From Candidatus Acidiferrales bacterium (GTDB lineage: Bacteria; Acidobacteriota; Terriglobia; Acidiferrales; UBA7541), in the NCBI GenBank assembly GCA_963738985.1, contig CAVTYP010000014.1, positions 20,907 through 84,906 of the forward strand: DNA of 64,000 bases, read 5' to 3'. Every line of letters begins with the position of its first letter. The first letter of the stretch is position 1. Below, in pieces: positions 9,344-56,714 of this stretch. Position numbers and translations under genes: made by a program. The notes beneath the pieces are model-generated. The model did not search any database, had not been told where the DNA came from, and saw nothing but the letters and a program-made list of their open reading frames with translations.

Positions 9344-9373
9344 AGTGTGCCGCTGGGAAGGAGCAGTTCCGCC

Positions 9374-35381: not shown

Positions 35382-35388
35382 CGCTCGT

Positions 35389-38370: not shown

Positions 38371-39251
38371 GCGCGTCCCTCCGCTACCAGTTCCCCCTTG
38401 AACAATTCTTCTGCCGTTGGCTTTCGGTACAAGATGCAATCGCCCAGAACGATGGCCTGGAATTTCACCGGCATTTTGGAAATGGACTCGGAGTGCCCGA
38501 GAAATAGATATCCGCCCGGCTCCAACGCTTCGTAAAAGCGCTGCACCAGGGTCTGCCGGCGTTCTTCCGTAAAGTAGATCAGCACGTTCATGCAGAAAAT
38601 AAGGTCCATGCGGCCCAGATATACCGGTGACGCCAGATTCATCTGAGCAAACGAAATCATTTTGCGTAAGCGCGGTTTTACCTGAAACCCGCCATCGACC
38701 GGCGTAAAGTGTGCGGCCAGTTGCTTCTCGCTTACGCTGCCAATGCTGCGGCCGGAATAGGTGGCGCGCTCAGCGTGACGCAGCGCTTGTCGGCCCACGT
38801 CCGTCGCAAGGATTTCCACATTCCAGGCATCGGCAAAGGAAAGGGAATCCACGATAGTGATGGCGATCGAATAAGGCTCTTCACCCGTGGAACAACCAGC
38901 GCTCCACACGCGCAGTGTTCGCGGATTGGTCCAAAATTTCTTGGTGTGTAGTTCAGGCAACACGCGCTTTTCAAATGCGTCGTATACTGCCGGATAACGG
39001 AAGAACGAGGTCTCCTGGGTTAGCAACCGCTCCAGAAGGGCCTCGTATTCTACATTCGATTTGCGAATGGTCCGCAGGAGATCACCGCCACGCTGCTGTT
39101 CCTTCGCGTGCAGATGCTCTCGCACGCGCGTGGAGAAGAATCTCTCTCGCGATTCGTCGAAGTGAATGCCCGTCCGCTCTTCAATCAGCATGCGGATCTC
39201 GCTCAATTCGTGTTCGCTCAAACCGTGTCCCGCCCCGTGGCGTTCGCTCAT
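38367..39251 (-). CDS. cheR: chemotaxis protein methyltransferase CheR
   Basis: ETSFFRYP, RVWSAGCSTGEEPYSIAI, IFCMNVLIYF. Confidence 0.9.
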   Translation of the reverse strand: MSERHGAGHGLSEHELSEIRMLIEERTGIHFDESRERFFSTRVREHLHAKEQQRGGDLLRTIRKSNVEYEALLERLLTQETSFFRYPAVYDAFEKRVLPELHTKKFWTNPRTLRVWSAGCSTGEEPYSIAITIVDSLSFADAWNVEILATDVGRQALRHAERATYSGRSIGSVSEKQLAAHFTPVDGGFQVKPRLRKMISFAQMNLASPVYLGRMDLIFCMNVLIYFTEERRQTLVQRFYEALEPGGYLFLGHSESISKMPVKFQAIVLGDCILYRKPTAEELFKGELVAEGRA

Positions 39252-39300
39252 GGCCGTCCCACTCTAGCTCCGGCGAATTCTCCGGAACTCGAACCTGTTG

Positions 39301-40722
39301 CTACCGCAAAGCACCCGCTGGGACGGGCTGGCGTGGCTCTTCCATCGCCGAAGCATTCGCCTTGGATTGCGCGCGGAATTGCGCCAGTGCTTCGTTCAGT
39401 TGATCCGACAGCTTCACGAGCTGGCTGACGGTTGCCACTGTTCCGCGTGTTCCTTGGGAAGTCTGGCGAGTAATGTTGGAAATGATTTGCATCGCGTGCG
39501 CCACGCCTTCGGTACCGCGCACCTGCTGTTTGGAAGCCAATGAGATTTCTTGTACAAGTTCGGCGGACTGACGCACCACGCTGGAAATTGCGTCCAGCGC
39601 CCGGCCCGCTTGATCGGCCAGTGTTGCGCCTGATTCCACTTCCTTGGTGCCTTCTTCCATAACCACCACGGCTTCGTTCGTCTCGGCCTGAATCGCCTTA
39701 ATGAGTGCCGCGATATCTTTCGTCGCGCTGCGAGAGTGCTCGGCCAGTTTGCGGACTTCATCGGCAACGACCGCGAAGCCTCGACCTGCTTCTCCGGCGC
39801 GTGCCGCTTCGATGGCCGCGTTCAACGCCAGCAGGTTGGTCTGCTCCGTGATGTCGTTAATCACGTTGATGATTTCCGAAATTTCCAAGGAGCGGTCGCC
39901 CAGCGACTTGATCTTTTTGGCGGTTGCCTGCACGGACGAACGGATTCGTTGCATGCCTTCCAGCGTGTCGCGCACGGCGCGGTTGCCTTGTTCGGCGGCA
40001 TCCAGCGCGCGGCGAGCTGCTTCCGCGCTGGCTTCGGCGTTGTTGGACACCTGCTTCATCGATACGGTGAGCTCTTCCACCGCGCTCGAAGTGTTGGTGA
40101 TTTCCTGGTCCTGTTGTGTGGCGCCGGCCTGCATCTCGTCGGCTGCCACAAGAATGTTGTTGGAGCATGCGGTGACTTCCATCGCGGCTTTGCGGACGCG
40201 TTCGAGCACCTTGGTGAAATTGTCGAGCATGTAGTTGATGGAGTCGGACACGTTGCCGAGCGCGTCGTTCGTCACCTTGCCGCGGAGCGTCAAATCGCCG
40301 CGCGCCACCTGATTGATGACCGCCAGCAAGTCGGTGATGCTGCGCTGCAACGCGTCGCTGGCTTCCTGATTGCTCGAAGCCTTCGAAACCTTGGCCACCG
40401 CGCGGTTCAGATTTTCCGCGATGAAGCCGAACTCATCGTTGGAGTTGACCTCCGCACGCACCTTGGCGTCACCCGCGGCCAGCCGTTCGGAGAACGCTGC
40501 CAACTCATTCACCGGGCCTAGAAACGCCGCGCCTAGTCTCCATGCCAGCACGATGCTCATGCCCAGCGCGATGACACCGGCAAAGATGAGCCCGCTGCTT
40601 TCGAACATGGACGCGCCGTTCGATTGCCGCCCCGCGCTGAAGGCGAGGCCTAGCACAGCGAACAATGCCAGGCCATTGAAGATCGTCAGCATCCAGATGG
40701 TGCCACTGAGTCGCGATTTCAT
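39301..40722 (-). CDS. methyl-accepting chemotaxis protein with minimal periplasmic loop (2 TM - HAMP - signalling domain)
   Basis: [36 protein letters not shown] signalling hairpin. Only about 20 residues separate the two N-terminal hydrophobic segments. Confidence 0.9.
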
Positions 40723-40753
40723 TACCTTCCTCCCAAACTCTTCCCTGAACTCT

Positions 40754-41284
40754 TTAAATGCTCGGCCCCGGATACACTTCCAACAACCGGTGTAGATCGA
40801 TCACCAGCGCCAGGCGATCGTCGTGACGAAGCATGCCGATGCAGTGAGGCACGTTCTCCGGCGCCTGTTCCAGCAAATCTTCCGCGTCGTTCACCGAATA
40901 AGTCCCGACAACTTCGTCTGCCGCGATGCCAATCCTTAAATCCTCGTGATGACCGCCACCGCGTAGCGAGGCGACTACGACGTGCTTCGGCAGCAGTCCC
41001 GGCCGCCGTCCCTCCGTCATCGCGATATCGATCAACGGCACAATCGCGCCACGCAAATTGAAAATGCCCAGGACGTATGCTGGGGCGAGCGGCAACTTCG
41101 TCACCAGCGGCCACTCCAGAACTTCTTCGACGTCCAGCACCGGAAAACAGAATCGTTCACGCCCGCTGCGGAATACGCAGTACTGCGATTCCGGCGGACG
41201 CTCACCAAGCGATCCCAGCGACTCGAGCAAGTCGCCCATCTCCGCGTCGGCGGGAAGCGGTGCCAGATGGAAATCTTCATTCAT
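40754..41284 (-). CDS. cheW: CheW coupling protein
   Basis: [23 protein letters not shown]...[20 protein letters not shown] is the canonical CheW pattern. Confidence 0.85.
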
Positions 41285-41302
41285 TCGCTAAGCCCTCGGC
41301 TC

Positions 41303-41665
41303 CTAAACAAAACGGCGAACTGCCCGCAGCAAATCTTCACGAGTGAAGGGCTTTGTGACGTAGCCATCCGCTCCCTGCTGCTCGCCCCAGTACTTGTCAC
41401 TCGGCGAATCTTTCGAGGTCACCAGGATCACGGGAATCGCATTGAACTCCGCGTTGCCCTTTAACTCGCGGCAAACCTGGAAGCCGTTACGCTCTGGCAT
41501 CACCACGTCCAGCAGAATTATGCTGGGCCGGTCGCTGGCCAGAAATTCTTCCACGCGTTTCGGGTCGTTCAGTCCGACCGGCGCGTAGCCCTCCGGCTCC
41601 AGAAGCCCCTGAATGAACTTCACTTGAGCCGGCGAATCATCGACAATGAGCACTTTTTTCTGCAC
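41303..41665 (-). CDS. cheY: CheY-like single-domain response regulator
   Basis: GTG start. KVLIVDDSPAQ ... IILLDVVMPERNGF ... ILVTSK ... YVTKPF. Confidence 0.85.
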   Translation of the reverse strand: MQKKVLIVDDSPAQVKFIQGLLEPEGYAPVGLNDPKRVEEFLASDRPSIILLDVVMPERNGFQVCRELKGNAEFNAIPVILVTSKDSPSDKYWGEQQGADGYVTKPFTREDLLRAVRRFV

Positions 41666-41798: not shown

Positions 41799-42593
41799 CT
41801 ATCGGCGCGGAAACAGCGAAGCCGACGCTTCTTCCGTCTCAGCTTGAGAAGACGTCTCAGCCTCTCGCATCTCGCTGGCAAGCGATGAGAATCTTTGCAT
41901 GATTTCATTAATGCGCAGCGCCATGGTGTGAATGGTTTTCAGTTGCGCCAACGACTGTGCGGAAAGTTCTCCTGGTTCCAGCAGCAGCAATTCCGCATTA
42001 CCCAGCAGGGAAGTCAGCGCATTGTTCACACTGTGCTTCATATCCATCATGTAGCGCCCCAGCATGGCGTGGTTGGCATTTTGCGCCGCGCGTTGTTCGG
42101 CGTGTCTTGCCAGGCGTTGCGCTTCGGTGCGCCGAAGCGATTCGCCCGCCATCAGCAGGACCACCTGGGTCCAATCCTCGCGCAGCGGCACCTGCAACAA
42201 ACGCGGGTAGCGTTTGCGCAGCAGTCCGAATTCTTGCGGCTCGGCCGGCGCACAAAGAATCACGGCCGTGTTCGGCTCGATTCCGCGCAGCACATCGGTC
42301 AGCTTGGTTTCCTTCAGCGGCCCGACAACCAGTAAGTCGGCGCTCAGGGTCTCGCCATGCGCGCAAAAGTCGCCGGTCAAAACCGAAATCCCCGGCAGCT
42401 GACGTTCAGTCTGCCAGCAAGCTGTCAGCAAACGGGCGAATTCGCTGTCATCGGTCAGAATCAGTACGCTTGTATTTCGCAATGGAACCGGGCTCCCTGA
42501 CTGTTTTTCTTGCGCCTGCTCGCTGTGCAGCAGGGAATCAAAGTTTTTCGGCTTCGTCCAACGCGGACAGCAGGCGCTTGGTGCTGATGCCAA
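41799..42593 (-). CDS. degenerate receiver-like domain fused to an orphan HisKA/DHp domain (no ATPase domain)
   Basis: C-terminal H-box MMDMKHSVNNALTSLLGNAELLLL resembles the neighbouring kinase H-box VAHEVNNPLAAILGFTDLLL, and the protein ends about 70 aa later with no N/G boxes. The N-terminus (VLILTDDSEF...ADLLVVGP) is REC-like but lacks the conserved Lys context. An alternative TTG start at 42482 would remove the 56-nt overlap with the upstream gene. Confidence 0.55.
   Translation of the reverse strand: MASAPSACCPRWTKPKNFDSLLHSEQAQEKQSGSPVPLRNTSVLILTDDSEFARLLTACWQTERQLPGISVLTGDFCAHGETLSADLLVVGPLKETKLTDVLRGIEPNTAVILCAPAEPQEFGLLRKRYPRLLQVPLREDWTQVVLLMAGESLRRTEAQRLARHAEQRAAQNANHAMLGRYMMDMKHSVNNALTSLLGNAELLLLEPGELSAQSLAQLKTIHTMALRINEIMQRFSSLASEMREAETSSQAETEEASASLFPRR
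41834..41862. promoter_or_regulatory. GTCTCAG repeat cluster (candidate enhancer-binding sites)
   Basis: ccGTCTCAGcttgagaagacGTCTCAGcc. The two GTCTCAG copies are 18 bp apart, and the first forms TCTCA-gct-TGAGA inverted arms. The cluster lies 116-144 bp upstream of the 41703-41718 element, inside the 3' end of the preceding CDS. Confidence 0.35.
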
Positions 42594-44001
42594 GATTTAC
42601 CGCCGCCTCCGTGTCTTTTGCCTGCTTGGCAACTTCCACGCGTTCCTGCAAACGTGAAACTTCAACACGCGCGATCGTCAGCGCGCTCTCCAGTCCGTTG
42701 TTATCGCCGGATTGCTTGGCGTGTTCCAGCGCGGCTGTTACCAGCGCGCGCGCCACCACCGCGCGGCGCAAATCTTCGGCCGCCGGCCCGTCTTCGCTCA
42801 CGAATGCCGCCACTTCCCATGAGGACATCAGCAAGCGCGCCCCACCGAGGCGGACGGTGGTCATGGAGCGCCCGCGCGAGGGCGTCGCAGCAATCAACTG
42901 CTCCCAGATCTGCTCCATGCAGGTTTCAAAATCGAGCGGTGGAGTGTCGCCATCCTTTGCCGAAGACGGACCACTTCCTGCGCCTTCGCCCTTTTCCGTG
43001 CCCGCCGACGTGGTAGACGCAGCGGTTGCTGGAGATGGCGGCGCAACTTTGGGCGCTTCTACTGGCTTACCCAGTACTTTTTCCATGGTGCGTTCGACGT
43101 CTGCGCGCAACGACAGCAGCTTGTCAAAGGCCTGATTAACCGAGCGTTCCGTGTATTCCTTCTGGAACGGCTGCTTCCATTCGTCTGCCAGTTGCCGCAC
43201 TCTCGCGACAGGTTCCGCCGCGGTCAAGCCGAATGATTGGCAGTCCACCGTGCGCGTCCCTGCGGATTCCAAGTGCGTCAAGCCGGAACGAATGAAGATC
43301 AAATCGGCGTGCATCAATTCAATCAGCGTGCGCCGCAGCAAGAAGTTAAACCGCACAAAGGCCAACATCGCCGAAGGATCGTAGAACATTCCTCCCGCGC
43401 TCTCCTTCACCCTGCGCCCTTGATCGATAAAGTTGGTTTTCAGGATGTCGCGCAGGCTCTTGAAAGCGCGCAGCGACGCAATCATTTTCTCCAGCGGCTC
43501 GCACCAGGGTAGCGGGGCCGTGTCCACTTCTCCCAGCACCGGCTTCATCACGTGCGCCACGTCACCCAGTTCAATTTGCTTGTGATAGGTCTTTGCCGGA
43601 GCGCAAAGCGCGAAATACTGCACCAGCAAAAAGTCGATTTTGTCGCGGTCGGTAACGCTCTTGGAAGGTTTCTTCAAATGCCGCATGATCAACGCGCGCA
43701 ATCCGCTTTCGCTGGCGTTTAGCGTGGTCATCTGCAGCAGGTGGCGCAACTGGTGAACCAGCACGCGCTGATCCATGGAGTCCAGCCACGTGTGCACCTG
43801 GGTGAAGAGTTCAAGCTCCGCCTTTTCCGGCAGCACTCGTTTGTTCGGCGGAAAGGGAATCTCAATCTGCAGATGTTTGGCGAGCGCAAGATAGATGGGG
43901 AAAACCGAGCGATTTTCCACCCATTGCGCTTGCCGCGAGTTGTCCAGCTTCGGCGGTGCCGGTATATTCAGCGTTGTCATTTTGTTCACGGCTGCATCCA
44001 A
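42538..44001 (-). CDS. hypothetical 487-aa protein, predicted mostly helical, with a central Pro/Ala/Ser/Gly-rich linker
   Basis: Long ORF with coding-like composition, co-directional and overlapping its neighbours by 16 and 56 nt. I recognise no motif. Confidence 0.6.
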   Translation of the reverse strand: MDAAVNKMTTLNIPAPPKLDNSRQAQWVENRSVFPIYLALAKHLQIEIPFPPNKRVLPEKAELELFTQVHTWLDSMDQRVLVHQLRHLLQMTTLNASESGLRALIMRHLKKPSKSVTDRDKIDFLLVQYFALCAPAKTYHKQIELGDVAHVMKPVLGEVDTAPLPWCEPLEKMIASLRAFKSLRDILKTNFIDQGRRVKESAGGMFYDPSAMLAFVRFNFLLRRTLIELMHADLIFIRSGLTHLESAGTRTVDCQSFGLTAAEPVARVRQLADEWKQPFQKEYTERSVNQAFDKLLSLRADVERTMEKVLGKPVEAPKVAPPSPATAASTTSAGTEKGEGAGSGPSSAKDGDTPPLDFETCMEQIWEQLIAATPSRGRSMTTVRLGGARLLMSSWEVAAFVSEDGPAAEDLRRAVVARALVTAALEHAKQSGDNNGLESALTIARVEVSRLQERVEVAKQAKDTEAAVNLGISTKRLLSALDEAEKL

Positions 44002-44315
44002 TCGCAGGGGCCTTGCAGAAATCTGACGGCCACTGCCTTACGTCCTTCGTGATACTGCAGGGCGATCACCGCGGCTTCCGCCCCTCGTCCCTTGCCATCC
44101 CGAATCACACGTACGCGCTCATCGAACTCCATCGGCAGTGTCGACAGGAAAATGGCGTATTCCGACGCGCCAAATTCCACTACCGTCGACTCTTGCAATT
44201 TCGCCTGACCGGGCCGCAGCGATTGCACTCGCACGGGTATGCGCACAGCTGGGAGCGTTGGAAAGAATCGCGCAAGTTGTTCCGCACATCCCTGCTCATT
44301 CGCAAGTAATGCCAT
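43986..44315 (-). CDS. small PilZ-like beta-barrel protein (degenerate)
   Basis: RxxxR present (AVRIPVRVQ), followed by TVVEFGASEYAIFL where PilZ proteins have D/NxSxxG. The size (109 aa) fits a single PilZ domain. Confidence 0.35.
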   Translation of the reverse strand: MALLANEQGCAEQLARFFPTLPAVRIPVRVQSLRPGQAKLQESTVVEFGASEYAIFLSTLPMEFDERVRVIRDGKGRGAEAAVIALQYHEGRKAVAVRFLQGPCDWMQP

Positions 44316-44427
44316 CTTTCGCTTTACCCCGGCGCCAATGGTCTGTTCGAGCTACGAGCTTTAGCCGCAAGGAGTGTGGAAGCGCACACACGGCACGGCC
44401 AGGAACACAATGTCCCGAGGAGGGAAT

Positions 44428-44443
44428 TGCACGCAGAGCGCCA
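44428..44443 (-). promoter_or_regulatory. candidate sigma-54 -24/-12 element upstream of the PilZ-like/487-aa/DHp genes
   Basis: The minus strand reads TGGCGC-TCTGC-GTGCA. Spacing is correct and 8 of 10 consensus positions match. It lies about 113 nt upstream of the ATG at 44315. Confidence 0.3.
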
Positions 44444-44523
44444 CATGTCAGTATGAATCTTGAATTTGGAAGTAACGGAAATGAAGGGGCTTAGGAATTT
44501 CCCGTTTGGATTCGTTCGCCCAA

Positions 44524-44596
44524 TGTCTCAGGCTGAAACGCTACTGTCTCATTCCCACTTGCGACAATCGCGCTCTTTCCTTAGACACTTGAGACG
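44524..44596. promoter_or_regulatory. TGTCTCA / TGAGAC repeat cluster (candidate enhancer-binding sites)
   Basis: TGTCTCA at 44524-44530 (extended as GTCTCAGGCTGA) and again at 44545-44551, exactly 21 bp apart. An inverted TGAGACg sits at 44590-44596. The cluster lies 82-154 bp upstream of the 44428-44443 element. Confidence 0.35.
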
Positions 44597-44599
44597 GCC

Positions 44600-46027
44600 T
44601 CAGCGCCCAACTCCACGAGCTTGCTCTTCTTTTGCCGGACCTTCTGGCGTTTCGCCGCGCAGGGGAATGCTGTAGCGCTTCAGTTTTCGGTACAGCGTGG
44701 CGCGACTGATTCCCAACATTTTTCCAGCCAGGGCTTTGTCGCCATTGGCCTGTTCAAACACGCGCAGGATGGTCATTTTTTCCATTTCGGCTAGTGCCGT
44801 GGTGGAGAGGCTGGCGGCGTCTTGTGGTGTCATCGTCTGGCCTAAAGGCTGTTCGGCGCGGATAGATGGCGGCAGATCTTTCACGTCGATGATTTCCTGA
44901 TCGCCAAGCGTCACGCCTCGCGCAATACAGTTTTCCAGCTCGCGCACATTTCCTGGCCAGTCGTATTGCAGCAGGCTCTTCATGGCTGCCGCCGTCACTT
45001 GAAGGTGCGTGGCGGGTGCGTAGCGGTTCAGGAAGTGGTGCACCAGCATGGGAATGTCGGAGCGGCGTTCGCGCAGTGGGGGCAGATGAACGGTGACCAC
45101 GTTCAAGCGAAAATAGAGGTCCTTACGGAAGGTGCCTTCGCGATACGCGGACTCCAGGTCGCGGTTCGTTGCCGCAATCACTCGCACGTCCACGTTCACT
45201 TTATCGTTGCTGCCCACGGGTCGTACTTCCTTTTCCTGCAACACGCGCAGCAACTTGGTCTGCATTTCCAACGGCAATTCGCCAATCTCGTCCAGAAACA
45301 GCGTTCCGCCGTTCGCCGCCTGGAATAGGCCTGATTTCGAGCGAGTCGCGCCCGTAAATGCGCCCTTCTCGTAGCCAAACAATTCGCTCTCCATCAGCGT
45401 TGGCACCAGCGCTCCGCAATCGACGGCGACAAAGGGTTCTTGGGCCAGCGCACCCTTGAAATGGATTGCTCGCGCCACCAGTTCCTTGCCGGTGCCACTC
45501 TCTCCGGAGATCAGGACCGCAGTCCGCGTATCTTTCAGCCGCGAAATCATCCGCAGTACATCCTGCATCCCGGAAGAGGTTCCAATGATTCCGTCGAGGT
45601 TCTCTTCGGTGTTTACGCGCTCCCGCAGGAACGCATTCTCGTTCACCAGGCGCACCTTTTCCGCCATGCGCTGCAAAAGCAGGCGAAGTTTTTCCACACG
45701 AAATGGTTTTTCGATGTAGTCGTAAGCGCCCAGCTTCATTGCATCCACCGCAGACTCAATCGAGCCGTGGCCGGTCATTATGGCGATTTCCGTGCGCGGC
45801 AATATATTGCGGACCTGCTTCAGCAGTTCGACTCCCGACTGGTTGGGCAGTTTCAAGTCGGTCAGCACCAAGTCGGGCGGATCGGTTTCCAGTCGCGTAA
45901 CCGCGGATTCCGCGCTTTCGGCTTCGCTGCAGGTGAAGCCCAGGGAGGTGCCGATGGTCATGCAAAGTCGCCGGATGCTCTGCTCATCGTCCACTACCAG
46001 TAGTTTGGTTTTCAGATCTTCGCTCAT
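44600..46027 (-). CDS. NtrC-family sigma-54-dependent response regulator (REC - AAA+ - Fis-type HTH)
   Basis: Receiver LLVVDDEQS...LVLTDLKLPNQSG. Walker A GESGTGKE. Sigma-54 contact loop GAFTGA. C-terminal HTH LGISRATLYRKLKRY. Confidence 0.9.
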   Translation of the reverse strand: MSEDLKTKLLVVDDEQSIRRLCMTIGTSLGFTCSEAESAESAVTRLETDPPDLVLTDLKLPNQSGVELLKQVRNILPRTEIAIMTGHGSIESAVDAMKLGAYDYIEKPFRVEKLRLLLQRMAEKVRLVNENAFLRERVNTEENLDGIIGTSSGMQDVLRMISRLKDTRTAVLISGESGTGKELVARAIHFKGALAQEPFVAVDCGALVPTLMESELFGYEKGAFTGATRSKSGLFQAANGGTLFLDEIGELPLEMQTKLLRVLQEKEVRPVGSNDKVNVDVRVIAATNRDLESAYREGTFRKDLYFRLNVVTVHLPPLRERRSDIPMLVHHFLNRYAPATHLQVTAAAMKSLLQYDWPGNVRELENCIARGVTLGDQEIIDVKDLPPSIRAEQPLGQTMTPQDAASLSTTALAEMEKMTILRVFEQANGDKALAGKMLGISRATLYRKLKRYSIPLRGETPEGPAKEEQARGVGR

Positions 46028-46425
46028 GGTTTTCCGAATGTTGTCTCCACTATCGAAATCAGTTGTTGCACCCGAAAAGGCTTTTCAATGCAGGGTGTCG
46101 CGCTGTCTCGCAGCAACGTTTGCGTCTCACTGTTGGCGGTATCCCCGCTGATCAGAATGATTCGTCCACTCAGGTCCGGCCGGTTCTTCTTGATCCAGTG
46201 GTGCACGTCGGCGCCATTGATGCTGCCCGGCATTCGAATGTCGGAAATGACTCCTGCATAATCGCCGGCCGCGAGATGCTCCAACCCTTCCGCGCCCGAA
46301 GATGCTTGCACGACGGAATAGCCACGACGCTGCAACGCCGTGCGCACGAAGGCTCGCACCGAAGCTTCATCCTCAATTAACAGGATGGGCGAGATTGCCT
46401 TTGTCGCACTGCTGGACTCGCTCAT
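46024..46425 (-). CDS. single-domain response regulator
   Basis: ILLIEDEASV...GVISDIRMPGSINGAD...ILISGD...IEKPF. 4-nt overlaps with both neighbours. Confidence 0.85.
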   Translation of the reverse strand: MSESSSATKAISPILLIEDEASVRAFVRTALQRRGYSVVQASSGAEGLEHLAAGDYAGVISDIRMPGSINGADVHHWIKKNRPDLSGRIILISGDTANSETQTLLRDSATPCIEKPFRVQQLISIVETTFGKP

Positions 46426-48755
46426 CTACCTGCCTCTTTCGCTGCCGCTGCCGCAATCGCGTTTTCAGTGGCCTGCGGCAGGCGCACCACGAAGGTGCTG
46501 CCTCGCTCTTCCGTTTCTGGATTATTCCAGCAGAGAATCTCGCCGCCGTGAGCTCGCACAATTCCATAGCAGATGCTCAAGCCCAGCCCGGTTCCTTTTC
46601 CCGCCTGCTTGGTGGTGAAGAAGGGATCGAAAATGCGTTCAGGTTCGGAAACGCCAGTTCCATTGTCGATGAACGCCACTTCGATGGAGTCCTGCGTGCG
46701 CCGCGTGCGGATGCGGATTCTGCCGTGATTTCCGGACTCCTGGATAGCGTCGTAGGCGTTGTTCAGGACGTTCAGGAATACCTGCTGCAGTTGCTGCGAG
46801 TCCCCCAGAGTCGGACCGATTCCTTCGTCGAATTCCTCCACCACGTCTACGCCATGGCTGGAAAAATCGTAGCTTCGCAGCTTGATGGTTTGCCGCAGAA
46901 TCGCATTTACCTGCACCGGTTCGCGCTGTGTTGGCTTTTGCCGCGCAAAACTCAGCAAATCCTGCACGATCTCTTTCGTTCGCTGGGTCTCTTGCAGAAT
47001 GATCTTCAAATCCTCGCGGGCAGATTCCGGGACAGCGGGATTTTCCAGTAACAGGTCCGTGAAGCCCAAAATCGCTGCCAGTGGATTGTTCACTTCGTGC
47101 GCCACGCCGGAAACTAGCCGCCCGATCGTCGCCATTTTCTCCGAATGCGCCAGTTTCGCCTGTAACAACGCGGCATCGGTAATGTCTGTCATGACCACTA
47201 CAACATTGTTTACTTGCCGGTTCTCGTCGCGCATCGGGCTCAAGCTGATGGAAAAATGTCCCATCGAACCATCGCTGCGCCGCACTCGCAACTCCAGATT
47301 CTCCACCTGCTGCCCTTGCGCCGTGGTCTGCAGCGCTGCTTCGAAGTCTTGCCGGTGCGACGCTTCCACCCACTCTTCCAACCGGTGGCCGATCATTTCA
47401 TTTTCGTGATAGCCCGCTTCGTAGCAGCGTCGGTTCGCATAGCTGGTCAGCCCGGCCGTATCCAGCACCAGGATCATGCTCTGCGTGGTGTTTAATATTT
47501 TCTGGTTAAAGTCGCGCTCGCGCTGCAGTTGCGACTGGAACATCTTTTGTTCCGTCACGTCCAGCATCAGCCCGCGTGTCTGTACGACATGACCTTGTGT
47601 ATCCCTCACCGCGCTGATGTTCTGCATGGTGTGCAACAGGCTGCCATCTTTTCGCCGCAGTGTTTCTTCGTAATTCCGCAATGTGCCGCGTTCCGCGATG
47701 GCTTCCACAAAGCGTTTCTTTGCGGCAATTGTTGGATAGAGGTGAGGGCTGACATCGGCGCGCAGAAGCTCCTCTCGCGACTCATAACCCAGCATGCGCA
47801 CCATGGCGTCATTGACGTCAAGAAACTGACCATCAGGTGTGGCGAAAAACAAGCCTTCCTGGATGCTGTCAAAGAGCTCGCGGTAACGGCGTTCCGCTTC
47901 AAGGCGATCCGTGATGTCCTTGAGGACGTGAATCGTGCGGGCGTCTTCTTCCGTTGCTCCGCGCGTGCGCGATGTCGACACAAGAAATGTGCGGCCCTCG
48001 GCCGTCGCGGTGTACTCTTCGCGCGCTTCTGTAGTGTTCCTGCAGAATGGGCAAGGCAGCGCGCTGCCGGTTTCTGCGATGTGACGCAAGCTGGTAACTA
48101 GTTCGCCGACCAACGCAACGGGCGACACTCCCAGATGAGTTGCCAAAGAGCGATTCGTGCGCACGATCTTCCAACTCTGATCGTGTACCACGATGTAATC
48201 GCTGATTGCGTCGATGTCCTCGACCCACTGTTTTTTGGAGCGCTCCAGTTGCGAAAAGCGCCGCACCTTTTCCATGGAAAGCGCCGCGTGGCTGGCCAGT
48301 GCGGTCATCAGCTTTTCTTCCGCGGCAGAAAACTCGGCGTTCGCTCGAATCACGCACAGCGTACCCATCAGTTCGCGATCGCTGGCGTAGATCGGGAACA
48401 TCCCGCAATAAGCTGCACGCTCCGGCAAGCGCGCCACCTGCAAGCCGCTTCGCTTGGCGGCGATGTTCTCCAGCAGCCAGTCCCAATCTTCCCTACCGCC
48501 CGGGAAATCCTTCACCGGAGAGTACAGCTGTACGCGATTTCCAGAGAGTTCTCCGACGCCGCCCCACTCCCCCCCCAACATTTCTGCCGCGCGCGACGCA
48601 AATGCTGCCAGAAACGCGGGCAGCTCGCGCGAGTTGGCAGCGGCCACCGCCAAATCCATTAATTCTTCGGCATGATCGATTTTTGCGCGGTTCGACAGCT
48701 TGCGGCCCTTGGGTGCCGCACGACGACGAGCAGAGATAGACTTTCGTCCACGCAT
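46422..48755 (-). CDS. cytoplasmic GAF - 3x PAS sensor histidine kinase
   Basis: No hydrophobic segments. PAS-like repeats. H-box GVAHEVNNPLAAILGFTDLL. N-box LNVLNNAYDAI. G-box [15 protein letters not shown]. Confidence 0.85.
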   Translation of the reverse strand: MRGRKSISARRRAAPKGRKLSNRAKIDHAEELMDLAVAAANSRELPAFLAAFASRAAEMLGGEWGGVGELSGNRVQLYSPVKDFPGGREDWDWLLENIAAKRSGLQVARLPERAAYCGMFPIYASDRELMGTLCVIRANAEFSAAEEKLMTALASHAALSMEKVRRFSQLERSKKQWVEDIDAISDYIVVHDQSWKIVRTNRSLATHLGVSPVALVGELVTSLRHIAETGSALPCPFCRNTTEAREEYTATAEGRTFLVSTSRTRGATEEDARTIHVLKDITDRLEAERRYRELFDSIQEGLFFATPDGQFLDVNDAMVRMLGYESREELLRADVSPHLYPTIAAKKRFVEAIAERGTLRNYEETLRRKDGSLLHTMQNISAVRDTQGHVVQTRGLMLDVTEQKMFQSQLQRERDFNQKILNTTQSMILVLDTAGLTSYANRRCYEAGYHENEMIGHRLEEWVEASHRQDFEAALQTTAQGQQVENLELRVRRSDGSMGHFSISLSPMRDENRQVNNVVVVMTDITDAALLQAKLAHSEKMATIGRLVSGVAHEVNNPLAAILGFTDLLLENPAVPESAREDLKIILQETQRTKEIVQDLLSFARQKPTQREPVQVNAILRQTIKLRSYDFSSHGVDVVEEFDEGIGPTLGDSQQLQQVFLNVLNNAYDAIQESGNHGRIRIRTRRTQDSIEVAFIDNGTGVSEPERIFDPFFTTKQAGKGTGLGLSICYGIVRAHGGEILCWNNPETEERGSTFVVRLPQATENAIAAAAAKEAGR

Positions 48756-48776
48756 AGGGGTTAGGGGCTCTGCGTG

Positions 48777-48943
48777 TGTCTCAATTTAGGAAACCACGCA
48801 CTCCCAAACTACTGAGCAATCTCATTCTGAGTCAATCCCCGTTCCACTTCGGAGTTCGCATGCGTTACCCTGCACCCGCCGTCAGAGCCCAGCCGCGTCT
48901 CAGCCTGAGATCAAACCGATGGACCGCCCGGCGGTTTGAGACG
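48777..48943. promoter_or_regulatory. TGTCTCA / GTCTCAG-CC-TGAGA / TGAGACG repeat cluster in a divergent intergenic region
   Basis: TGTCTCA at 48777-48783. GTCTCAGCCTGAGA at 48897-48910 has palindromic arms TCTCA/TGAGA. TGAGACg at 48937-48943. The cluster lies 117-283 bp upstream of the 49060 sigma-54-like element and just upstream of the divergent kinase operon. Confidence 0.4.
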
Positions 48944-49059
48944 TTTGGTGGAACTTTCCTCGAGGTGCATCATTTTCATTTCGCTCGTATCTAATTGCAG
49001 AGTAAGCGCTTGCGACGCCAATCAGCGCTTTTGCTCTTTCTTTCCGCTACTCTTCGTCC

Positions 49060-49115: not shown

Positions 49116-49463
49116 GTGTCCATTCATAGTGGATGGGGAAAGGCGATTCTCGCGCTGGTCGCGACGGGGGTGTTGGCCGGATCCTTTGCGCTTGCACAAC
49201 AGGCCAACGTCGAGGAAAGCAAGAGGAAGGTCAAGGTGAGGGCCAATCCAGCGTATCCGGAACTGGCTAAGCGGCTAGGTCTCGGCGGGAAGGTCCGCAT
49301 TGAGGTGGTCATTGGTACGGACGGCAAGGTGAAGAATTCGCGCGCTATCGGCGGTCATCCAGTTCTCGTGCAGGCGGCGACGGATTGTCTTCGCGAATGG
49401 CGCTTCGAGCCGGCGCAAGAGGAAACCACGCAAGTGATCGAGTTCGAATTCAAGCAGCAGTGA
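49116..49463 (+). CDS. small secreted TonB C-terminal-domain protein
   Basis: GTG start 5 nt after AAGGAGG. Signal-like KAILALVATGVLAGSFALAQQ. TonB_C pattern ANPAYPELAKRLGLGGKVRIEVVIGTDGKVKNSRAIGGHPVL...A...WRFEP. Confidence 0.7.
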   Translation: MSIHSGWGKAILALVATGVLAGSFALAQQANVEESKRKVKVRANPAYPELAKRLGLGGKVRIEVVIGTDGKVKNSRAIGGHPVLVQAATDCLREWRFEPAQEETTQVIEFEFKQQ

Positions 49464-49535
49464 GCTACGCGCGGCGAGTTGACTGAGAGGGCGGCGCTTC
49501 AACTGGTTGTTTAGGGGAGCGGAGGAAGTAACGCA

Positions 49536-51542
49536 ATGACGATCGAAAAACAGTTGTACCGGAGTTTTGGAGCGATTGGGGGCATTCTACTCATCCTGCT
49601 CATGGTGGATATCGGCACCATTTGGAAAGCCAGCCGGGCTAGCAGCGAAGCATCCGCGACGCTGGAGAGCGTGCGAACGACGGAGGCTGTGCGCTATCAG
49701 ATCATGCAGAATCGCTTGAACTTGAACAACTTTTTGCTCAGCGGCGACCCGCGCGACGAAGAGAAGGTCAATCGCGGCTTCACCGAACTCACCGATCTGG
49801 TCAAGCGAGGGCAATCTGAAACCAAGAATGACCTGATGCGCACCGCGTTGATCCAGGTGGAGAGCACCGAAGCCAGCTGGGCCGATAATTTTGGCAAGCC
49901 TTTGCTCGCCAAGCGCCACCAGGTTGATTCCGGGGATGCCACCGTCTCGGATCTGCAGATCTTCTATTTGCAGAAAGATCCCACATCGTGGTTGAACAAA
50001 TCTACTGCCGTTCTCGATGAGGCCAAGGCAGACATCGGCAAAGCGCAGGTGGATTCGCAGAAGGCCGCGGACCGCGCCAGTTTGTATAGTTATGCGGCGA
50101 TTCTGATCGGGTCGATTCTGGCCCTGCTCATGATCGGCTACACCGCCGTTAGGACCGCCCGCTCCATCACCGAACCTTTGCAGCACTTGATTACCGTTGC
50201 CCGCGAAATTGGCGATTCCGGCGACCTCGACCAGAATATTGATATCCACCGTAATGACGAAATCGGGGCACTGGCTACCACCTTCAACAATATGGTCGCC
50301 TATTTGAAGGAAATGGCCAGCGTCTCCATGGCTGTGGCCGAAGGTGACCTCACCGTTGAAGTGACGCCTCGTTCCAAGCGCGACACCCTCGGCAACGCGT
50401 TCATTCGCATGGCCCACGGCTTACAGGAAATCGTTCGTTCCACTCGCGATGGGGCCTCGCAGGTTTCGGCTGGTTCCAACCAGGTTGCGGGCGCCGCTGA
50501 CGAATCCGCGAAAGTCAGCGTGCAAGCCTCCTCCGCCATTGAAGAAGTCACCAGCACGATGCACGAAATGAGCATCAACGTGCAGAACGTAGTGAAGAAC
50601 ACCCAAGTGCAGGCTTCCAGCGTTGCTGAAACCTCTGCATCCATCGATCAGATGGTCACTTCCATCCAGCGCGTTGCGGACACCGCCAAGGTCCTGCTGG
50701 ACATTGCCAATCGCTCGCGTGAAGAGGTCGTCACCGGTATCGCGACGATGGAGAAGACCACCGACGGACTGAACCGTACCAATCGCGCCATCCAGTCTTC
50801 CGCTGAGATCATCAATATTCTCGGGCATCGCGCCGACGACATTGGCAAGATCATCGAAGTGATCGACGACCTTGCCGAACAGACCAACCTGCTGGCTTTG
50901 AACGCCGCCATCGAAGCCGCTCGTGCTGGCGAACATGGCCTCGGATTCGCCGTAGTCGCCGACGAAGTCCGCAAACTCGCCGAGAAATCCACACAATCCA
51001 CAAAGGAAATTGCCGACCTGATCCAGAGCATCCAGCGTGAAGCTCGCCAGGCTGTCGAAAACATGGAGCGCAGCACGCGAATCGTCGAAGAAGGCTTGAG
51101 CCTCGGAAACGATCTGGGCACCGCACTTCATAAAATTTCCGACGTCGTCACCGAAGTCTACAAGTTCTCTCAGGAAATCGGCGCCGCCACCAACGAACAG
51201 TCGGTCGGTTCTTCACAAATCGCCAAGGCTACCAACCGCCTGACCGAAATCACGCAGGAGATCAACTCTGCCGTCGAGGAACAAGCATCCGGCGCGCAAG
51301 CCGTCGTGCGCGCCATGGACAAAATGCGTGAACTGGTTCAGCAGTCCGCTTCCAGCTCCACCGAACTGTCTGCTGCCGCCGAACAAATGCTGAAGCTTTC
51401 CCGCAACCTTCTCGACAATATGGATCGCTTCGTCATCGACCGCGCCGGCCAGGTTCGCCATCGTCACGACAACATTCCGCAACGCCGGCAGCCCAATTCA
51501 GAATCCAGTGAATATGAATTTGCCGAAGTCGGACGCAACTGA
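49536..51542 (+). CDS. methyl-accepting chemotaxis protein (4-helix-bundle-type periplasmic domain - HAMP - signalling domain)
   Basis: Two TM segments flank a helical domain of about 150 aa. [36 protein letters not shown]. Confidence 0.9.
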   Translation: MTIEKQLYRSFGAIGGILLILLMVDIGTIWKASRASSEASATLESVRTTEAVRYQIMQNRLNLNNFLLSGDPRDEEKVNRGFTELTDLVKRGQSETKNDLMRTALIQVESTEASWADNFGKPLLAKRHQVDSGDATVSDLQIFYLQKDPTSWLNKSTAVLDEAKADIGKAQVDSQKAADRASLYSYAAILIGSILALLMIGYTAVRTARSITEPLQHLITVAREIGDSGDLDQNIDIHRNDEIGALATTFNNMVAYLKEMASVSMAVAEGDLTVEVTPRSKRDTLGNAFIRMAHGLQEIVRSTRDGASQVSAGSNQVAGAADESAKVSVQASSAIEEVTSTMHEMSINVQNVVKNTQVQASSVAETSASIDQMVTSIQRVADTAKVLLDIANRSREEVVTGIATMEKTTDGLNRTNRAIQSSAEIINILGHRADDIGKIIEVIDDLAEQTNLLALNAAIEAARAGEHGLGFAVVADEVRKLAEKSTQSTKEIADLIQSIQREARQAVENMERSTRIVEEGLSLGNDLGTALHKISDVVTEVYKFSQEIGAATNEQSVGSSQIAKATNRLTEITQEINSAVEEQASGAQAVVRAMDKMRELVQQSASSSTELSAAAEQMLKLSRNLLDNMDRFVIDRAGQVRHRHDNIPQRRQPNSESSEYEFAEVGRN

Positions 51543-51557
51543 CGCGGAGACCGCCCC

Positions 51558-52034
51558 ATGGAGAAAGACTACCAAGTTGTTGGTTTTCGCATCGGCAATG
51601 AAACGTACGGGGTTCGCATCGGATCCGTGCGCGAGATCGTTCGCGTACCCGAAATCACTTCGGTTCCTAACGCGCCGGAAGCCATCGAAGGGGTCATCAA
51701 CCTTCGTGGAAAAATCATTCCGGTGATGGACCTGCGCAAGCGCTTCGGCATCGAAGCGGTTCAGCCCGACAAGAAGAATCGCATTCTGGTGGTTGAACTG
51801 GACAACAAGCTTCTCGGCTTGATTGTCAGTTCCGCTTCCGAAGTGCTGAAAATCCCTCCCTCGGAGATCGCCGCGCCCGGCACCGTGTTTGCCGAGGGTG
51901 AGTCCAGCTATGTGACCGGCGTCGGCAAACTGAAAGGCCGGCTCATCATTCTCCTGGATATAGCCAGGCTGTTGCGTCAACCGGAATTCAAGAAACTTGA
52001 GGAGGCCGCGGAACCCGTCGCAGTCGCGCGTTAG
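51558..52034 (+). CDS. cheW: CheW coupling protein
   Basis: QVVGFRIGNETYGVRIGSVREIVRVPEITSVPNAPEAIEGVINLRGKIIPVMDL. Confidence 0.9.
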   Translation: MEKDYQVVGFRIGNETYGVRIGSVREIVRVPEITSVPNAPEAIEGVINLRGKIIPVMDLRKRFGIEAVQPDKKNRILVVELDNKLLGLIVSSASEVLKIPPSEIAAPGTVFAEGESSYVTGVGKLKGRLIILLDIARLLRQPEFKKLEEAAEPVAVAR

Positions 52035-52084
52035 TTGCTTCGTTGCTGGAGCCGCCGGCTGTACGAACGTTGCACGCACCCAGT

Positions 52085-52990
52085 ATGGGAACCATTACTG
52101 CTCAGGTTCAGCTCACGGAAGCGGAACTCAAGCTCCTGCAGACCCTTGTCTACCAGGAGTGCGGCATGTATTTTGATGAGCGCCGCGCTCATTTCCTGAA
52201 GGATCGTCTGCAGCGCCGATTGAAGGCCTGCCAGCTCGATTCTTTCTACAGCTACTATCGCTTGCTCACCAGCCGCGAGGGCCGCGCGGAACTCGCCCTG
52301 CTTCTTGAGAATCTTACCGTCAACGAAACCAGTTTCTTTCGCAACCGCCCGCAGCTCGACCTGCTGCAGAAATCGGTCCTCGAAGAAATCCTTCATCACA
52401 AGCAGGAGCGCCGCGATTGGAATCTTCGCGTGTGGTCCGCCGGTTGCTCCGCTGGTCAGGAGCCCTATTCCGTCGCCATCCTTATCTGCGACGCTCTCGC
52501 TTACTACTATCTTCGCAACCCGCTTCCGTTTGAGATGCCTTCGCCCAAGCCGCTGATTCCTCCGCCGTGGAAACTCGAAATCGTGGCTTCCGATATCAGT
52601 TACGCCAGCCTTCGCACCGGCCAGGAGGGCCTGTACACGGAAATTCAGATGGAGCCTGTCGACTACACGACCAGGCTGCGCTACTTCGAAAAAACCAGCG
52701 ATAAGTATGGCGTCAAACCTCAGCTGAAAGAACTGGTTCAGTTCGACTTCCACAACCTGAAAACCGAATTCTTGCCACGGCGCAACGACATTATCCTCTG
52801 CCGCAACGTGATGATCTATTTCGACGAGGCCGAGCAGAAGCGCCTGATTGAGAAGTTCTGGCATTGCTTGAATCCTGGGGGATATCTTTTCGTCGGCCAC
52901 GCGGAAAGCCTCTTTGGCCTCACCCAAAAATTTAAAATGGTTCATGAGAACAACGGCACCGCTTACAAGCGTATTGAGGTGAATCCGTGA
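52085..52990 (+). CDS. cheR: chemotaxis protein methyltransferase CheR
   Basis: Start at ATG 52085 (MGTITAQV). ETSFFRNRPQ, RVWSAGCSAGQEPYSVAI, IILCRNVMIYF. Confidence 0.9.
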   Translation: MGTITAQVQLTEAELKLLQTLVYQECGMYFDERRAHFLKDRLQRRLKACQLDSFYSYYRLLTSREGRAELALLLENLTVNETSFFRNRPQLDLLQKSVLEEILHHKQERRDWNLRVWSAGCSAGQEPYSVAILICDALAYYYLRNPLPFEMPSPKPLIPPPWKLEIVASDISYASLRTGQEGLYTEIQMEPVDYTTRLRYFEKTSDKYGVKPQLKELVQFDFHNLKTEFLPRRNDIILCRNVMIYFDEAEQKRLIEKFWHCLNPGGYLFVGHAESLFGLTQKFKMVHENNGTAYKRIEVNP

Positions 52991-55086: not shown

Positions 55087-56234
55087 ACGGGCGCATTAAA
55101 GTTCTGGTGGTCGACGACTCTGCCTTGATGCGCAAGCTCATTCCCATGATTCTTGAGCGCGATCCGGACATTGAAGTGGTAGGCACGGCCATGGACGGCG
55201 CGTTTGCCTTGCGCAAAATTGCCGAGTTGCATCCGGACGTGGTCACACTCGACCTCGAGATGCCCCGCATGGACGGCATCGAAACCTTGCGCATGATTAT
55301 GCGCAGCGCTCCGTTGCCGGTCATCGTTTTCAGCACCCATTCCAAAGAGGGCGCCTACTCTACGTTCAAGGCGCTGGCTCTAGGTGCCATCGATTTTGTC
55401 GCCAAGCCCAAAGATGCCGCGGCCGGTCATCTCGACCCGATCGCTTATCAGCTCATCGAAAAAATCAAAGTGGCCAAACGCGCTGGCGGCCCCAAATCTC
55501 TACCCAAGGTGGAAACCGAACTCCCTCCACCGGGCAAGAAACGCACGCGAAACGCTCTTCCGCCTAATCGCGTCATCGCGATTGGTATTTCTACTGGCGG
55601 CCCTAACGCTCTGCAATATCTTCTTTCGCAGATTCCACCGGATTTTCCCGCCACCTTTCTGGTCGTCCAGCACATGCCAGAGGGTTTTACCGATATGTTC
55701 GCGCACCGGTTGGACGAATGCTGCGCCCTGGATGTTCAGGAAGCCAAATCCGGCGATCTGCTGGTTGCTGGTCGCGTTCTCATCTGCCCTGGCAATCGTC
55801 ACATGATGGTCCGCCGCATGCCTCGCGGAGAAATGGTGGTTTTGTCGGACAGCCCGGCAATTAACGGCCACCGTCCGTCGGTTGACGTGCTGTTCCACTC
55901 CGTCGCGCAAGAGTTTGCCCTTACTGCGGTTGGCGTTCTGATGACTGGCATGGGCGAAGATGGTGCCGAAGGATTGGGAGCTATCAAATCCGCGGGCGGT
56001 ATGACCATCGCGCAAAGCGAAGAAACCTGCGTGGTCAGCGGAATGCCCCGTGCCGCTATTTCTAAAGGCTACGCCATGAAGATTCTGCCGTTGGAGGCGC
56101 TCGGCGCGTTTCTGATCAGCCACTACGGCAACGAGCACGGGGGCAACGAGAAATCTGACGCCCAAGAGAAATCCGACAAGGGTCAAAAAACGGAACGAAC
56201 CGAACGAACACCCGTTTCAACTCCGCGTGCCTGA
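55083..56234 (+). CDS. cheB: protein-glutamate methylesterase CheB
   Basis: KVLVVDDSALM...VVTLDLEMPRMDG. IAIGISTGGPNAL. GMGEDGAEG. Unusual basic/acidic C-terminal tail of about 35 aa. Confidence 0.9.
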   Translation: MNGRIKVLVVDDSALMRKLIPMILERDPDIEVVGTAMDGAFALRKIAELHPDVVTLDLEMPRMDGIETLRMIMRSAPLPVIVFSTHSKEGAYSTFKALALGAIDFVAKPKDAAAGHLDPIAYQLIEKIKVAKRAGGPKSLPKVETELPPPGKKRTRNALPPNRVIAIGISTGGPNALQYLLSQIPPDFPATFLVVQHMPEGFTDMFAHRLDECCALDVQEAKSGDLLVAGRVLICPGNRHMMVRRMPRGEMVVLSDSPAINGHRPSVDVLFHSVAQEFALTAVGVLMTGMGEDGAEGLGAIKSAGGMTIAQSEETCVVSGMPRAAISKGYAMKILPLEALGAFLISHYGNEHGGNEKSDAQEKSDKGQKTERTERTPVSTPRA

Positions 56235-56261
56235 TCGCACTTGGAGCTAAAGGAGAAGGTT

Positions 56262-56714
56262 ATGCCACAGTTTGCGCCGCTACTTCGGAAGGACACCCAG
56301 CCGGTCCGCTATCTTGTCGTGGACGACTCCGTCTTCGCCCGTAAGAACCTCATCAAGATGATTGAGCTGTTCGGCGGGGAAGTGGCGGGAGAAGCCGGTG
56401 ACGGACTAACGGCCATTGCGGAATTCAACCGTTCCAAGCCGGATATCGTGCTCATGGATATCACCATGCCGCAGATGGAAGGCATCGAATCCGTCGAACG
56501 CATCGTTCGCCAGCATCCCGACGCCCGCATTGTCATGGTTTCCTCTGTCGGCTATCAGGAAAACATTCTTGCCGCTCTGCAAAAGGGTGCCAAGCACTTT
56601 GTGCAAAAGCCGGTAAAGCCCGAAGTGCTGTACGAAATTCTTCGTTACGTTTTGGGAGACGATCCCAATGCCGCCAATGTGCCCGTTGAACTGGCGGGGG
56701 AGCAGCGCTCATGA
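56262..56714 (+). CDS. cheY: CheY-like response regulator
   Basis: ATG at 56262 preceded by aaggagaagg. YLVVDDSVFARK...IVLMDITMPQMEG...VMVSSVG...FVQKP. Confidence 0.85.
   Translation: MPQFAPLLRKDTQPVRYLVVDDSVFARKNLIKMIELFGGEVAGEAGDGLTAIAEFNRSKPDIVLMDITMPQMEGIESVERIVRQHPDARIVMVSSVGYQENILAALQKGAKHFVQKPVKPEVLYEILRYVLGDDPNAANVPVELAGEQRS

Follow-up and report, generated by a model that had tools for sequence, protein, structure and literature searches.

In a 64-kb stretch of a Candidatus Acidiferrales genome (contig CAVTYP010000014.1, positions 20,907 to 84,906; the whole stretch is called the window below), we identified a 15-bp palindrome, GTCTCA-N3-TGAGAC, upstream of three sigma-54-type promoter elements, P1, P2 and P3, which face a chemosensory (Che) gene cluster, a trio of genes and a second Che cluster, respectively. 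The palindrome probably serves as the operator, or enhancer, from which a neighbouring NtrC-type activator drives Che clusters 1 and 2 and the trio. The initial annotation of this DNA had described clusters of the hexamer GTCTCA, or its complement TGAGAC, upstream of the three elements, and had suggested that one activator co-regulates the three gene groups; conserved sites, constant spacing and the co-occurrence of sites with promoters lend sequence-level support to that suggestion.

A palindromic site in three regulatory regions

Every half-site listed in the initial annotation was recovered at its place (GTCTCA on the plus strand at 41836, 41854, 44525, 44546, 48778 and 48897, and on the minus strand at 44590 and 48937). 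Alignment of orthologous regions revealed that these hexamers are halves of the 15-bp palindrome. What had been taken for loose clusters of half-sites is instead a dyad with extra half-sites: each region contains one strong dyad, accompanied by between one and three half-sites or weaker dyads (Table 1). The window was scanned for the dyad with GTCTCAGNCTGAGAC, using mononucleotide shuffles as the null. The best three matches in the 64 kb, at 44525 (one mismatch), 48897 (one mismatch) and 41836 (two mismatches), were the three clusters themselves, whilst shuffling gave an expectation of 0 matches at one mismatch and 0.18 at two mismatches. For the third cluster, the copies listed earlier are real, but a conserved degenerate dyad at 48819–48833 (S3c) had been overlooked.

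On both strands of the window, GTCTCA occurs 17 times, compared to 25.4 ± 4.5 times in dinucleotide-preserving shuffles, and is therefore rarer than expected. Eight of the 17 copies are packed into three short segments (24, 71 and 165 bp). Seven pairs of copies lie no more than 170 bp apart, whereas uniform placement predicts 0.72 (P = 6.5e-5, for a pair-distance window of 170 bp that was picked post hoc), which bears out the earlier view that such clustering is improbable by chance. The remaining nine copies are single, and eight of them are located in coding DNA. The scattered single copies named in the initial annotation do exist, but four more, at 8946, 9665, 46124 and 63727, had gone unlisted, and these are not conserved in relatives. 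The copy at 46124–46129, inside the gene for a stand-alone receiver, occupies a position that is filled in only ~9 of 80 related loci and is probably non-functional. We rejected avoidance of GTCTCA across the genome, as the sub-words of the hexamer explain its rarity (observed/expected 0.91, rank 474 of 2080).

Conservation of the hexamer in related genomes

To find relatives, the 487-aa protein of the trio (42538–44001), which is both specific and very conserved, was used as an anchor. A scan of one genome per species yielded 80 loci in which the anchor is 69–96% identical, mostly labelled Candidatus Acidoferrales, Acidoferrum or Acidiferrum, with the rest mainly Acidobacteriota and a few others. 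Gene order is identical in all loci with enough flanking sequence. Candidatus Acidoferrales and their relatives are known mainly from metagenome-assembled genomes (MAGs), and none of the related genome records that we found came from an isolate. In one MAG (CAVSDV01, MFD02134.bin.3.246), the whole locus is present twice on different contigs (loci L017 and L021), possibly owing to duplication or to a mixture of strains.

Conservation and positional bias of the hexamer had been set beforehand as the test of its relevance, and both were evident in the 80 loci. Whereas the other 1.54 Mb carry 0.15 copies of the hexamer per kb, the three regions carry 10.9, 8.3 and 6.5 copies per kb, an enrichment of ~40- to 70-fold, and the positional histogram of the hexamer over ~1.5 Mb of flanking DNA displays three hot spots only. 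An unbiased screen of all hexamers identified GTCTCA as the sole word found in all three regions of 67/67 complete loci; it was 64-fold enriched and ranked first. The five words ranked next were overlapping variants of GTCTCA, and the weaker words further down included ACGTGC, which stems from the promoter −12 element. Individual half-site bases are 94–100% conserved, and the flanks and the 3-bp spacer ~40–60%.

Conserved sigma-54-type promoters

The three GG-N10-GC elements reported in the initial annotation are present where it had placed them (Table 1). In each, GG and GC are 10 bp apart within a match to TGGCAC-N5-TTGCW that faces the gene, at 39–114 bp from the gene start. The −24 TGG and the −12 TGC are 99–100% conserved in the orthologous loci, with conservation of spacer positions as low as 40–60%: TGG and TGC are 100% conserved in the 80 loci at P1, TGG and GTGCA are conserved at P2, and TGGC and TGCC are 99–100% conserved at P3, with a variable spacer in every case. 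Conserved ends enclosing a variable spacer are the pattern expected of working sigma-54 promoters.

P1, P2 and P3 are the only matches to TGGC-N8-TGC in the non-coding DNA of the window, in a count that discounts two spurious open reading frames (ORFs) of the greedy ORF map. Annotation as coding is unwarranted for a mechanically called 118-aa ORF (44138–44494, plus strand) that spans the regulatory DNA of region 2, and likewise for ORF 48936–49115 (plus strand), a TTG-extended start of the TonB_C-like gene. The real start of the TonB_C-like gene is a GTG near 49113–49116, after AAGGAGG.

Spacing of the sites over deep divergence

The main dyads hold near-constant positions relative to these promoters. 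From the centre of the dyad to the G of the −12 GC, the distance in the 80 loci is 138 bp at P1, 102–104 bp at P2 and 169–171 bp at P3, with offsets that vary by ~2 bp. S1a, centred 138 bp upstream of the P1 −12 GC in the window, is found at −135 to −139 across all clades, and S2a keeps to −102 to −104 in almost every one of the loci compared (71 from Acidoferrales and 20 distant). S3a, which shows a mean of 0.64 mismatches over 75 loci and is perfect in several of them, is at −159 to −171 in distant clades.

The auxiliary sites, at approximately −154 of P1, −121 and −165 of P2, and −136, −247 and −295 of P3, are also conserved, each in its own manner. S1b is kept as TGAGAC in closer relatives and as TGAGAA in more distant Acidoferrales. 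The TGAGAC bases of S2b are each 94–97% conserved, with an unconserved would-be partner half, and S3b similarly has bases that are 94–99% conserved without a conserved partner half, being located mostly near −137 (−126 to −138) in distant clades. S2c is kept in the consensus of 72 sequences, at a position that is more variable than those of the other sites. S3c is conserved in 75 loci and takes the form xTCTCA-N3-TGAGTC, at −226 to −256, in distant clades, and the left half of S3d is 94–98% conserved, with a mean of 2.75 mismatches to the dyad. This is the geometry of an upstream activating sequence: multiple dyad-symmetric sites upstream of a −24/−12 element, the main ones at about −138, −102 and −169. 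Enhancer sites typically lie ~100–150 bp upstream of sigma-54 promoters (PMC7057263). Short conserved blocks were also observed between the dyads and the promoters, such as GGCTTAGGAATTTCCCG at 44488–44505, and likewise in the spacers of regions 1 and 3.

A further 80 loci came from scanning metagenomes with an alignment that covered the diversity of the 487-aa family. Thirty-one of these are distant, with an anchor 33–57% identical and an activator 66–79% identical to those of the window, and one distant cluster is labelled Terriglobales. Gene order is kept in the distant loci wherever the contig is long enough, −24/−12 elements are found there too, and the dyad–promoter spacing persists to within a few bp more, with few exceptions. 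The P1 dyad of these loci is at −135 to −138 and the P2 dyad mostly at −102 or −103 (range −93 to −116, covering correctly picked promoters; the promoter of locus L084 was mispicked by the script).

Rearrangements of the locus provided a natural control. In L082 and L084, an extra gene (8748–9635 and 8925–9653, respectively) is inserted between the activator gene and the trio, and despite this insertion the dyad stays beside the trio promoter, ~103 bp upstream of it in L082. In one distant group (L085, L086 and L096), the gene for the 264-aa protein of the trio abuts the CheY gene with a gap of 12–18 bp that holds neither a −24/−12 element nor a dyad, and transcription of Che cluster 1 presumably begins there at the trio promoter. 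Overall, the internal promoter (P1) and the dyad were both present in 133 loci and both absent from 3, with 0 discordant loci.

A probable enhancer site inside a coding sequence

Cluster 1 is not intergenic. It lies within the last codons of ORF 41799–42593, where S1a and S1b coincide with the codons E-T-x-S-Q-x-E-T near the C-terminus of the 264-aa protein. In the 80 loci, the first two positions of the codon that spans the dyad centre vary, giving Ala, Gly, Thr, Val and others, while its third base, the T of TGAGAC, is 100% conserved. The serine is always encoded by TCT and the glutamine always by CAA, and the tail of the protein past the site varies freely. Because wobble bases are fixed while amino acids vary, selection on cluster 1 acts on the DNA rather than on the protein.

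The neighbouring activator as the candidate binder

The gene at 44600–46027 encodes a protein with Pfam matches to Sigma54_activat (2.9e-71), Response_reg, AAA_lid_14 and HTH_8. Its translation contains the GAFTGA motif, as noted in the initial annotation, and the receiver aspartate D57, and the protein therefore shows the receiver, AAA+ and C-terminal Fis-type helix-turn-helix (HTH) domains of the NtrC family. It scored below all NCBIfam equivalog cut-offs (best AtoC, 453 versus 714 bits; ntrC, 442 versus 558.6 bits), so that by these cut-offs it belongs to none of the named groups NtrC, AtoC, ZraR, NtrX, PEP-CTERM regulator, FlbD, LuxO and others. On this domain evidence, we classify the activator as an unnamed member of the NtrC family.

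Transcription from a sigma-54 promoter strictly requires an enhancer-binding protein, and this activator is the sole enhancer-binding protein of the window and the sole DNA-binding protein of the conserved module. Wherever a locus has enough flanking sequence, the activator gene is adjacent to the sites. Across 73 orthologues, invariance of the HTH region is 97% or higher, and in clades in which the activator is 66–79% identical, substitutions in the recognition helix LGISRATLYRKLK are rare and affect single residues. When we looked for co-variation of regulator and motif, both the dyad and the recognition helix proved nearly invariant across clades, and the near-invariance of the helix matches the unchanged motif. 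The dyad, 15 bp long and bearing G at −7 and C at +7, suits the geometry of a Fis-type HTH dimer. Since the activator is the only DNA-binding protein of the module, has the appropriate domain make-up, is linked to the sites and faces sites of the appropriate geometry, there is a strong case from sequence that it is the binder of the dyad.

We infer that the activator binds these sites and thereby activates transcription. In the mechanism that we propose, the PAS/GAF histidine kinase encoded at 46422–48755, the presumed cognate kinase of the activator, would phosphorylate D57. Activator dimers, bound to dyads and half-sites through the Fis-type HTH, would assemble into an AAA+ ring, which DNA looping would bring to the closed complex of RNA polymerase and sigma-54. 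ATP hydrolysis through the GAFTGA loop would then open P1, P2 and P3, and Che cluster 1, the trio and Che cluster 2 would be switched on together.

Several observations weigh against this interpretation. Helices like LGISRATLYRKLK occur in many other NtrC-family proteins and, because the helix is of a common type, it does not by itself single out the motif. In the DNA that separates the sites from the promoters, a search for the consensus of the Escherichia coli type for integration host factor gave no match at a conserved position. The window shows no enrichment of the bare TGGC-N8-TGC pattern (20 matches versus 16 expected), and the promoter calls for P1 to P3 consequently rest on position and conservation. 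Finally, the three loci that lack both promoter and dyad may represent a single evolutionary event.

Other explanations of the repeats

The one rival that retains some probability, though a low one, is that the dyads are genuine protein sites bound by a regulator encoded elsewhere, either another enhancer-binding protein or a repressor, in which case the neighbouring activator would act through other, as yet unrecognised, sites. The common type of the recognition helix, which does not co-vary with the motif, would accommodate such a regulator, as would the conserved blocks of unassigned role between the dyads and the promoters. It would, however, have to be reconciled with a dyad that is the sole word common to all three regions, that has no other counterpart at a conserved place in ~1.5 Mb of flanking DNA, and that is linked to the activator gene in every sufficiently flanked locus across deep divergence. 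The distances of 100–170 bp also suit enhancer sites, and a sigma-54 promoter requires an enhancer-binding protein, of which the window encodes this one only.

It is far less probable that the inverted repeats act as RNA or single-strand hairpins that terminate or attenuate transcription downstream of the activator gene and of the gene for the 264-aa protein. Two of the three clusters are indeed located at or just past a gene 3′ end, and the dyads could form stems of 5–6 bp. However, the predicted stems are weak (−2 to −7 kcal/mol) and are not followed by a T-run, no Rfam match was obtained, and changes in one half are uncompensated, with GTTTCA, GTGTCA, GTATCA and GTCGCA all facing an invariant TGAGAC. 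Half-sites that stand alone show the same degree of conservation as the dyads; cluster 3 is flanked by divergent genes, so that no transcript ends in it; and the dyad is lost together with the downstream promoter rather than with the upstream gene end. An intrinsic terminator or structured RNA was therefore rejected, there being no stable stem with compensation, no T-run and no known RNA family.

More doubtful still is a dispersed repeat of the REP (repetitive extragenic palindromic) or MITE (miniature inverted-repeat transposable element) kind, or a set of restriction-modification sites, maintained for purposes other than transcription. GTCTC and CGTCTC are type IIS recognition sequences, and the hexamer is fairly rare elsewhere. 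Its rarity nevertheless follows from its sub-words, it occupies syntenic positions at set distances from the promoters, and the three regions share nothing beyond the motif save the elements of the sigma-54 promoters (e.g. ACGTGC). Chance recurrence of a short hexamer in AT-richer non-coding DNA, which the non-exhaustive count of the initial annotation had left conceivable, can be dismissed, given that the word is rarer than expected window-wide, is enriched ~40- to 70-fold at the same three places in 80 genomes, persists in clades at 33–57% protein identity and forms one of its clusters in coding DNA.

Possible autoregulation of the kinase–receiver–activator operon

Both S3c (48819–48833) and the half-site at 48778–48783 are positioned 20–80 bp upstream of the kinase start, and the first overlaps a candidate sigma-70-type promoter, TTGACT-N18-TAGTTT (48835–48806, minus strand; −35-like TTGACT at 48835–48830), that was read by eye upstream of the kinase operon. 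This arrangement suggests, tentatively, that the activator regulates its own kinase–receiver–activator operon through these two sites, although we would not put this on a level with its proposed action on the three presumed target operons. A strict sigma-70 promoter scan of the region upstream of the kinase made no call, TTGACT-N18-TAGTTT included. If that sequence is the promoter, the half-site at 48778–48783 would fall in the 5′ untranslated region of the kinase operon.

Presumed target operons

Che cluster 1 runs from CheY (41303–41665) down to a REC-DUF4388 protein (32463–33239) and encodes CheY, CheW, a methyl-accepting chemotaxis protein (MCP), CheR, CheA-REC, CheB, two CheW-like proteins and the REC-DUF4388 protein. 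Its CheA carries a fused C-terminal receiver (35389–38439, minus strand), and together with the terminal REC-DUF4388 protein (minus strand) this suggests a non-canonical output. The third operon comprises a small TonB_C-like protein, an MCP, CheW, CheR, CheA, CheB, CheY and CheX.

The trio is separated from the activator gene by 284 bp and from Che cluster 1 by 133 bp. Searches of Pfam and NCBIfam gave no family assignment for its members, save a weak HisKA match. This match belongs to the 264-aa protein (41799–42593, minus strand), in which a receiver-like N-terminus precedes two helices that resemble DHp/HisKA (E 4e-5, short of the Pfam cut-off) and an ATPase domain is lacking. The variable C-terminal tail of this protein carries the enhancer of the next operon. 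The 487-aa protein (minus strand) belongs to a family with 3975 homologues at E<1e-5, which group into 578 clusters at 50% identity. Neither Pfam nor NCBIfam matched it, the PDB gave no fold match at E<0.001, and its AlphaFold2 model is mostly helical, with a mean pLDDT (predicted local distance difference test) of 62.

Table 1. Sites, promoter elements, regulators and presumed target operons in the window
Feature	Position	Strand	Sequence	Remarks
Dyad S1a	41836..41850		GTCTCAGCTTGAGAA (minus strand TTCTCAAGCTGAGAC)	2 mismatches to GTCTCAGNCTGAGAC; inside last codons of ORF 41799-42593
Half-site S1b	41854..41859		GTCTCA	18 bp from first half-site of S1a
Dyad S2a	44525..44539		GTCTCAGGCTGAAAC	1 mismatch; centre 102 bp upstream of P2 -12 GC
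Half-site S2b	44546..44551		GTCTCA	21 bp from start of S2a
Half-site S2c	44590..44595	+	TGAGAC	4 bp past activator stop codon
Site S3d	48778..48792		GTCTCAATTTAGGAA	Perfect left half (48778-48783), weak right half; 22-36 bp upstream of kinase start
Degenerate dyad S3c	48819..48833		ATCTCATTCTGAGTC	247 bp upstream of P3
Dyad S3a	48897..48911		GTCTCAGCCTGAGAT	1 mismatch; centre 169 bp upstream of P3 -12 GC
Half-site S3b	48937..48942		TGAGAC	~31 bp promoter-proximal of S3a
P1	41703..41718	-	TGGCCGCTGACGTGCA	TGGCCG-N5-GTGCA; 39 bp upstream of CheY gene opening Che cluster 1
P2	44428..44443	-	TGGCGCTCTGCGTGCA	TGGCGC-N5-GTGCA; upstream of trio 43986-44315, 42538-44001, 41799-42593
P3	49060..49075	+	TGGCATTGCACTTGCC	TGGCAT-N5-TTGCC; upstream of TonB_C-like gene and Che cluster 2
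NtrC-family enhancer-binding response regulator	44600..46027	-		REC (D57), AAA+ (GAFTGA), HTH_8
Stand-alone receiver	46024..46425	-		Pfam Response_reg 2.6e-20; co-operonic with kinase and activator; conserved place in gene order
Sensor histidine kinase	46422..48755	-		Pfam: GAF-like, two PAS, HisKA, HATPase_c; conserved place in all loci with enough flank
Presumed target operon 1, Che cluster 1	32463..41665	-		ORFs, Pfam (CheY, REC-DUF4388), conserved gene order
Presumed target operon 2, trio	41799..44315	-		109-aa protein, 487-aa orphan, 264-aa receiver-like/DHp protein
Presumed target operon 3	49116..57214	+		ORFs, Pfam (TonB_C, CheX), conserved gene order

Significance and relation to known systems

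The locus represents, on solid grounds, a new and well-defined regulon of the known NtrC-type enhancer kind, and as such would not surprise a specialist. It offers a precise operator, GTCTCA-N3-TGAGAC, and a predicted regulon of three operons for an uncharacterised sigma-54 activator. The interest of the system lies in the content of the regulon (two chemosensory pathways and a large orphan family), in the enhancer embedded in coding sequence, a clean example in which selection is visible as fixed wobble bases beside variable residues, and in an enhancer–promoter spacing that is nearly constant over deep divergence. The model predicts that two whole chemosensory pathways and the 487-aa orphan family are expressed only on the signal of one PAS/GAF kinase.

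We speculate, with little confidence, that the locus is a self-contained behavioural switch widespread in Terriglobia, in which kinase and activator would control two chemosensory pathways and the trio through a rigid nucleoprotein architecture, with feedback on the activator. Within this reading, the near-fixed spacings (~103, 138 and 170 bp) over deep divergence would mean that the DNA does not loop freely but is held in such an architecture. The feedback could come from the Che pathways or from the receiver/DHp protein of the trio, by analogy with the action of Che3 on CrdA described below.

Our literature search returned no report of this motif, none of che operons under sigma-54 control in Acidobacteria, and no shared dyad enhancer joining two che clusters and a third operon. 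The nearest described pair is CrdS-CrdA of Myxococcus xanthus, a histidine kinase and an NtrC-like activator encoded beside the che3 cluster, where Che3 acts on CrdA in that CheA3 modulates CrdA phosphorylation; no DNA site for CrdA is described in that study (PMC3147164). In both organisms, a kinase–activator pair beside chemosensory genes ties sigma-54-type regulation to a Che pathway. In contrast to the M. xanthus system, the presumed activator sites are here upstream of the che operons, so that control would run in the opposite direction, and the two systems are compared by arrangement and not by orthology.

Control of a whole che operon by a −24/−12 promoter has a reported precedent in cheOp3 of Rhodobacter sphaeroides, which Martin et al. 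(2006, J Bacteriol) are said to have found to be sigma-54-dependent; the organism and the activator differ from ours. Comparative work on sigma-54 regulons (e.g. in Clostridiales) has reportedly linked enhancer-binding protein genes to nearby −24/−12 promoters with palindromes 80–200 bp upstream, and our reconstruction follows the same logic of gene proximity and upstream palindromes.

The classical counterpart is NtrC (NRI) at glnAp2 of E. coli and Salmonella, a protein of REC, AAA+ and Fis-type HTH domains that binds dyads with a 3-bp centre. At glnAp2, the two main NtrC sites are approximately three helical turns apart, near −140 and −108, and are accompanied by weaker sites; NtrC sites also overlap the promoters of its own operon, resulting in autoregulation. 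The system described here differs from NtrC in its operator (GTCTCA-N3-TGAGAC versus TGCACCA-N3-TGGTGCA), in its targets (chemosensory operons and unassigned genes versus nitrogen assimilation), in its kinase (PAS/GAF versus NtrB) and in the score of its activator (442 bits, under the NCBIfam ntrC cut-off of 558.6). It resembles NtrC in the domain set of the activator, in 3-bp-centred dyads with weaker auxiliary sites, in spacing (approximately −170 and −139 at P3, and −138 at P1) and in having candidate sites over the putative promoter of the activator's own operon.

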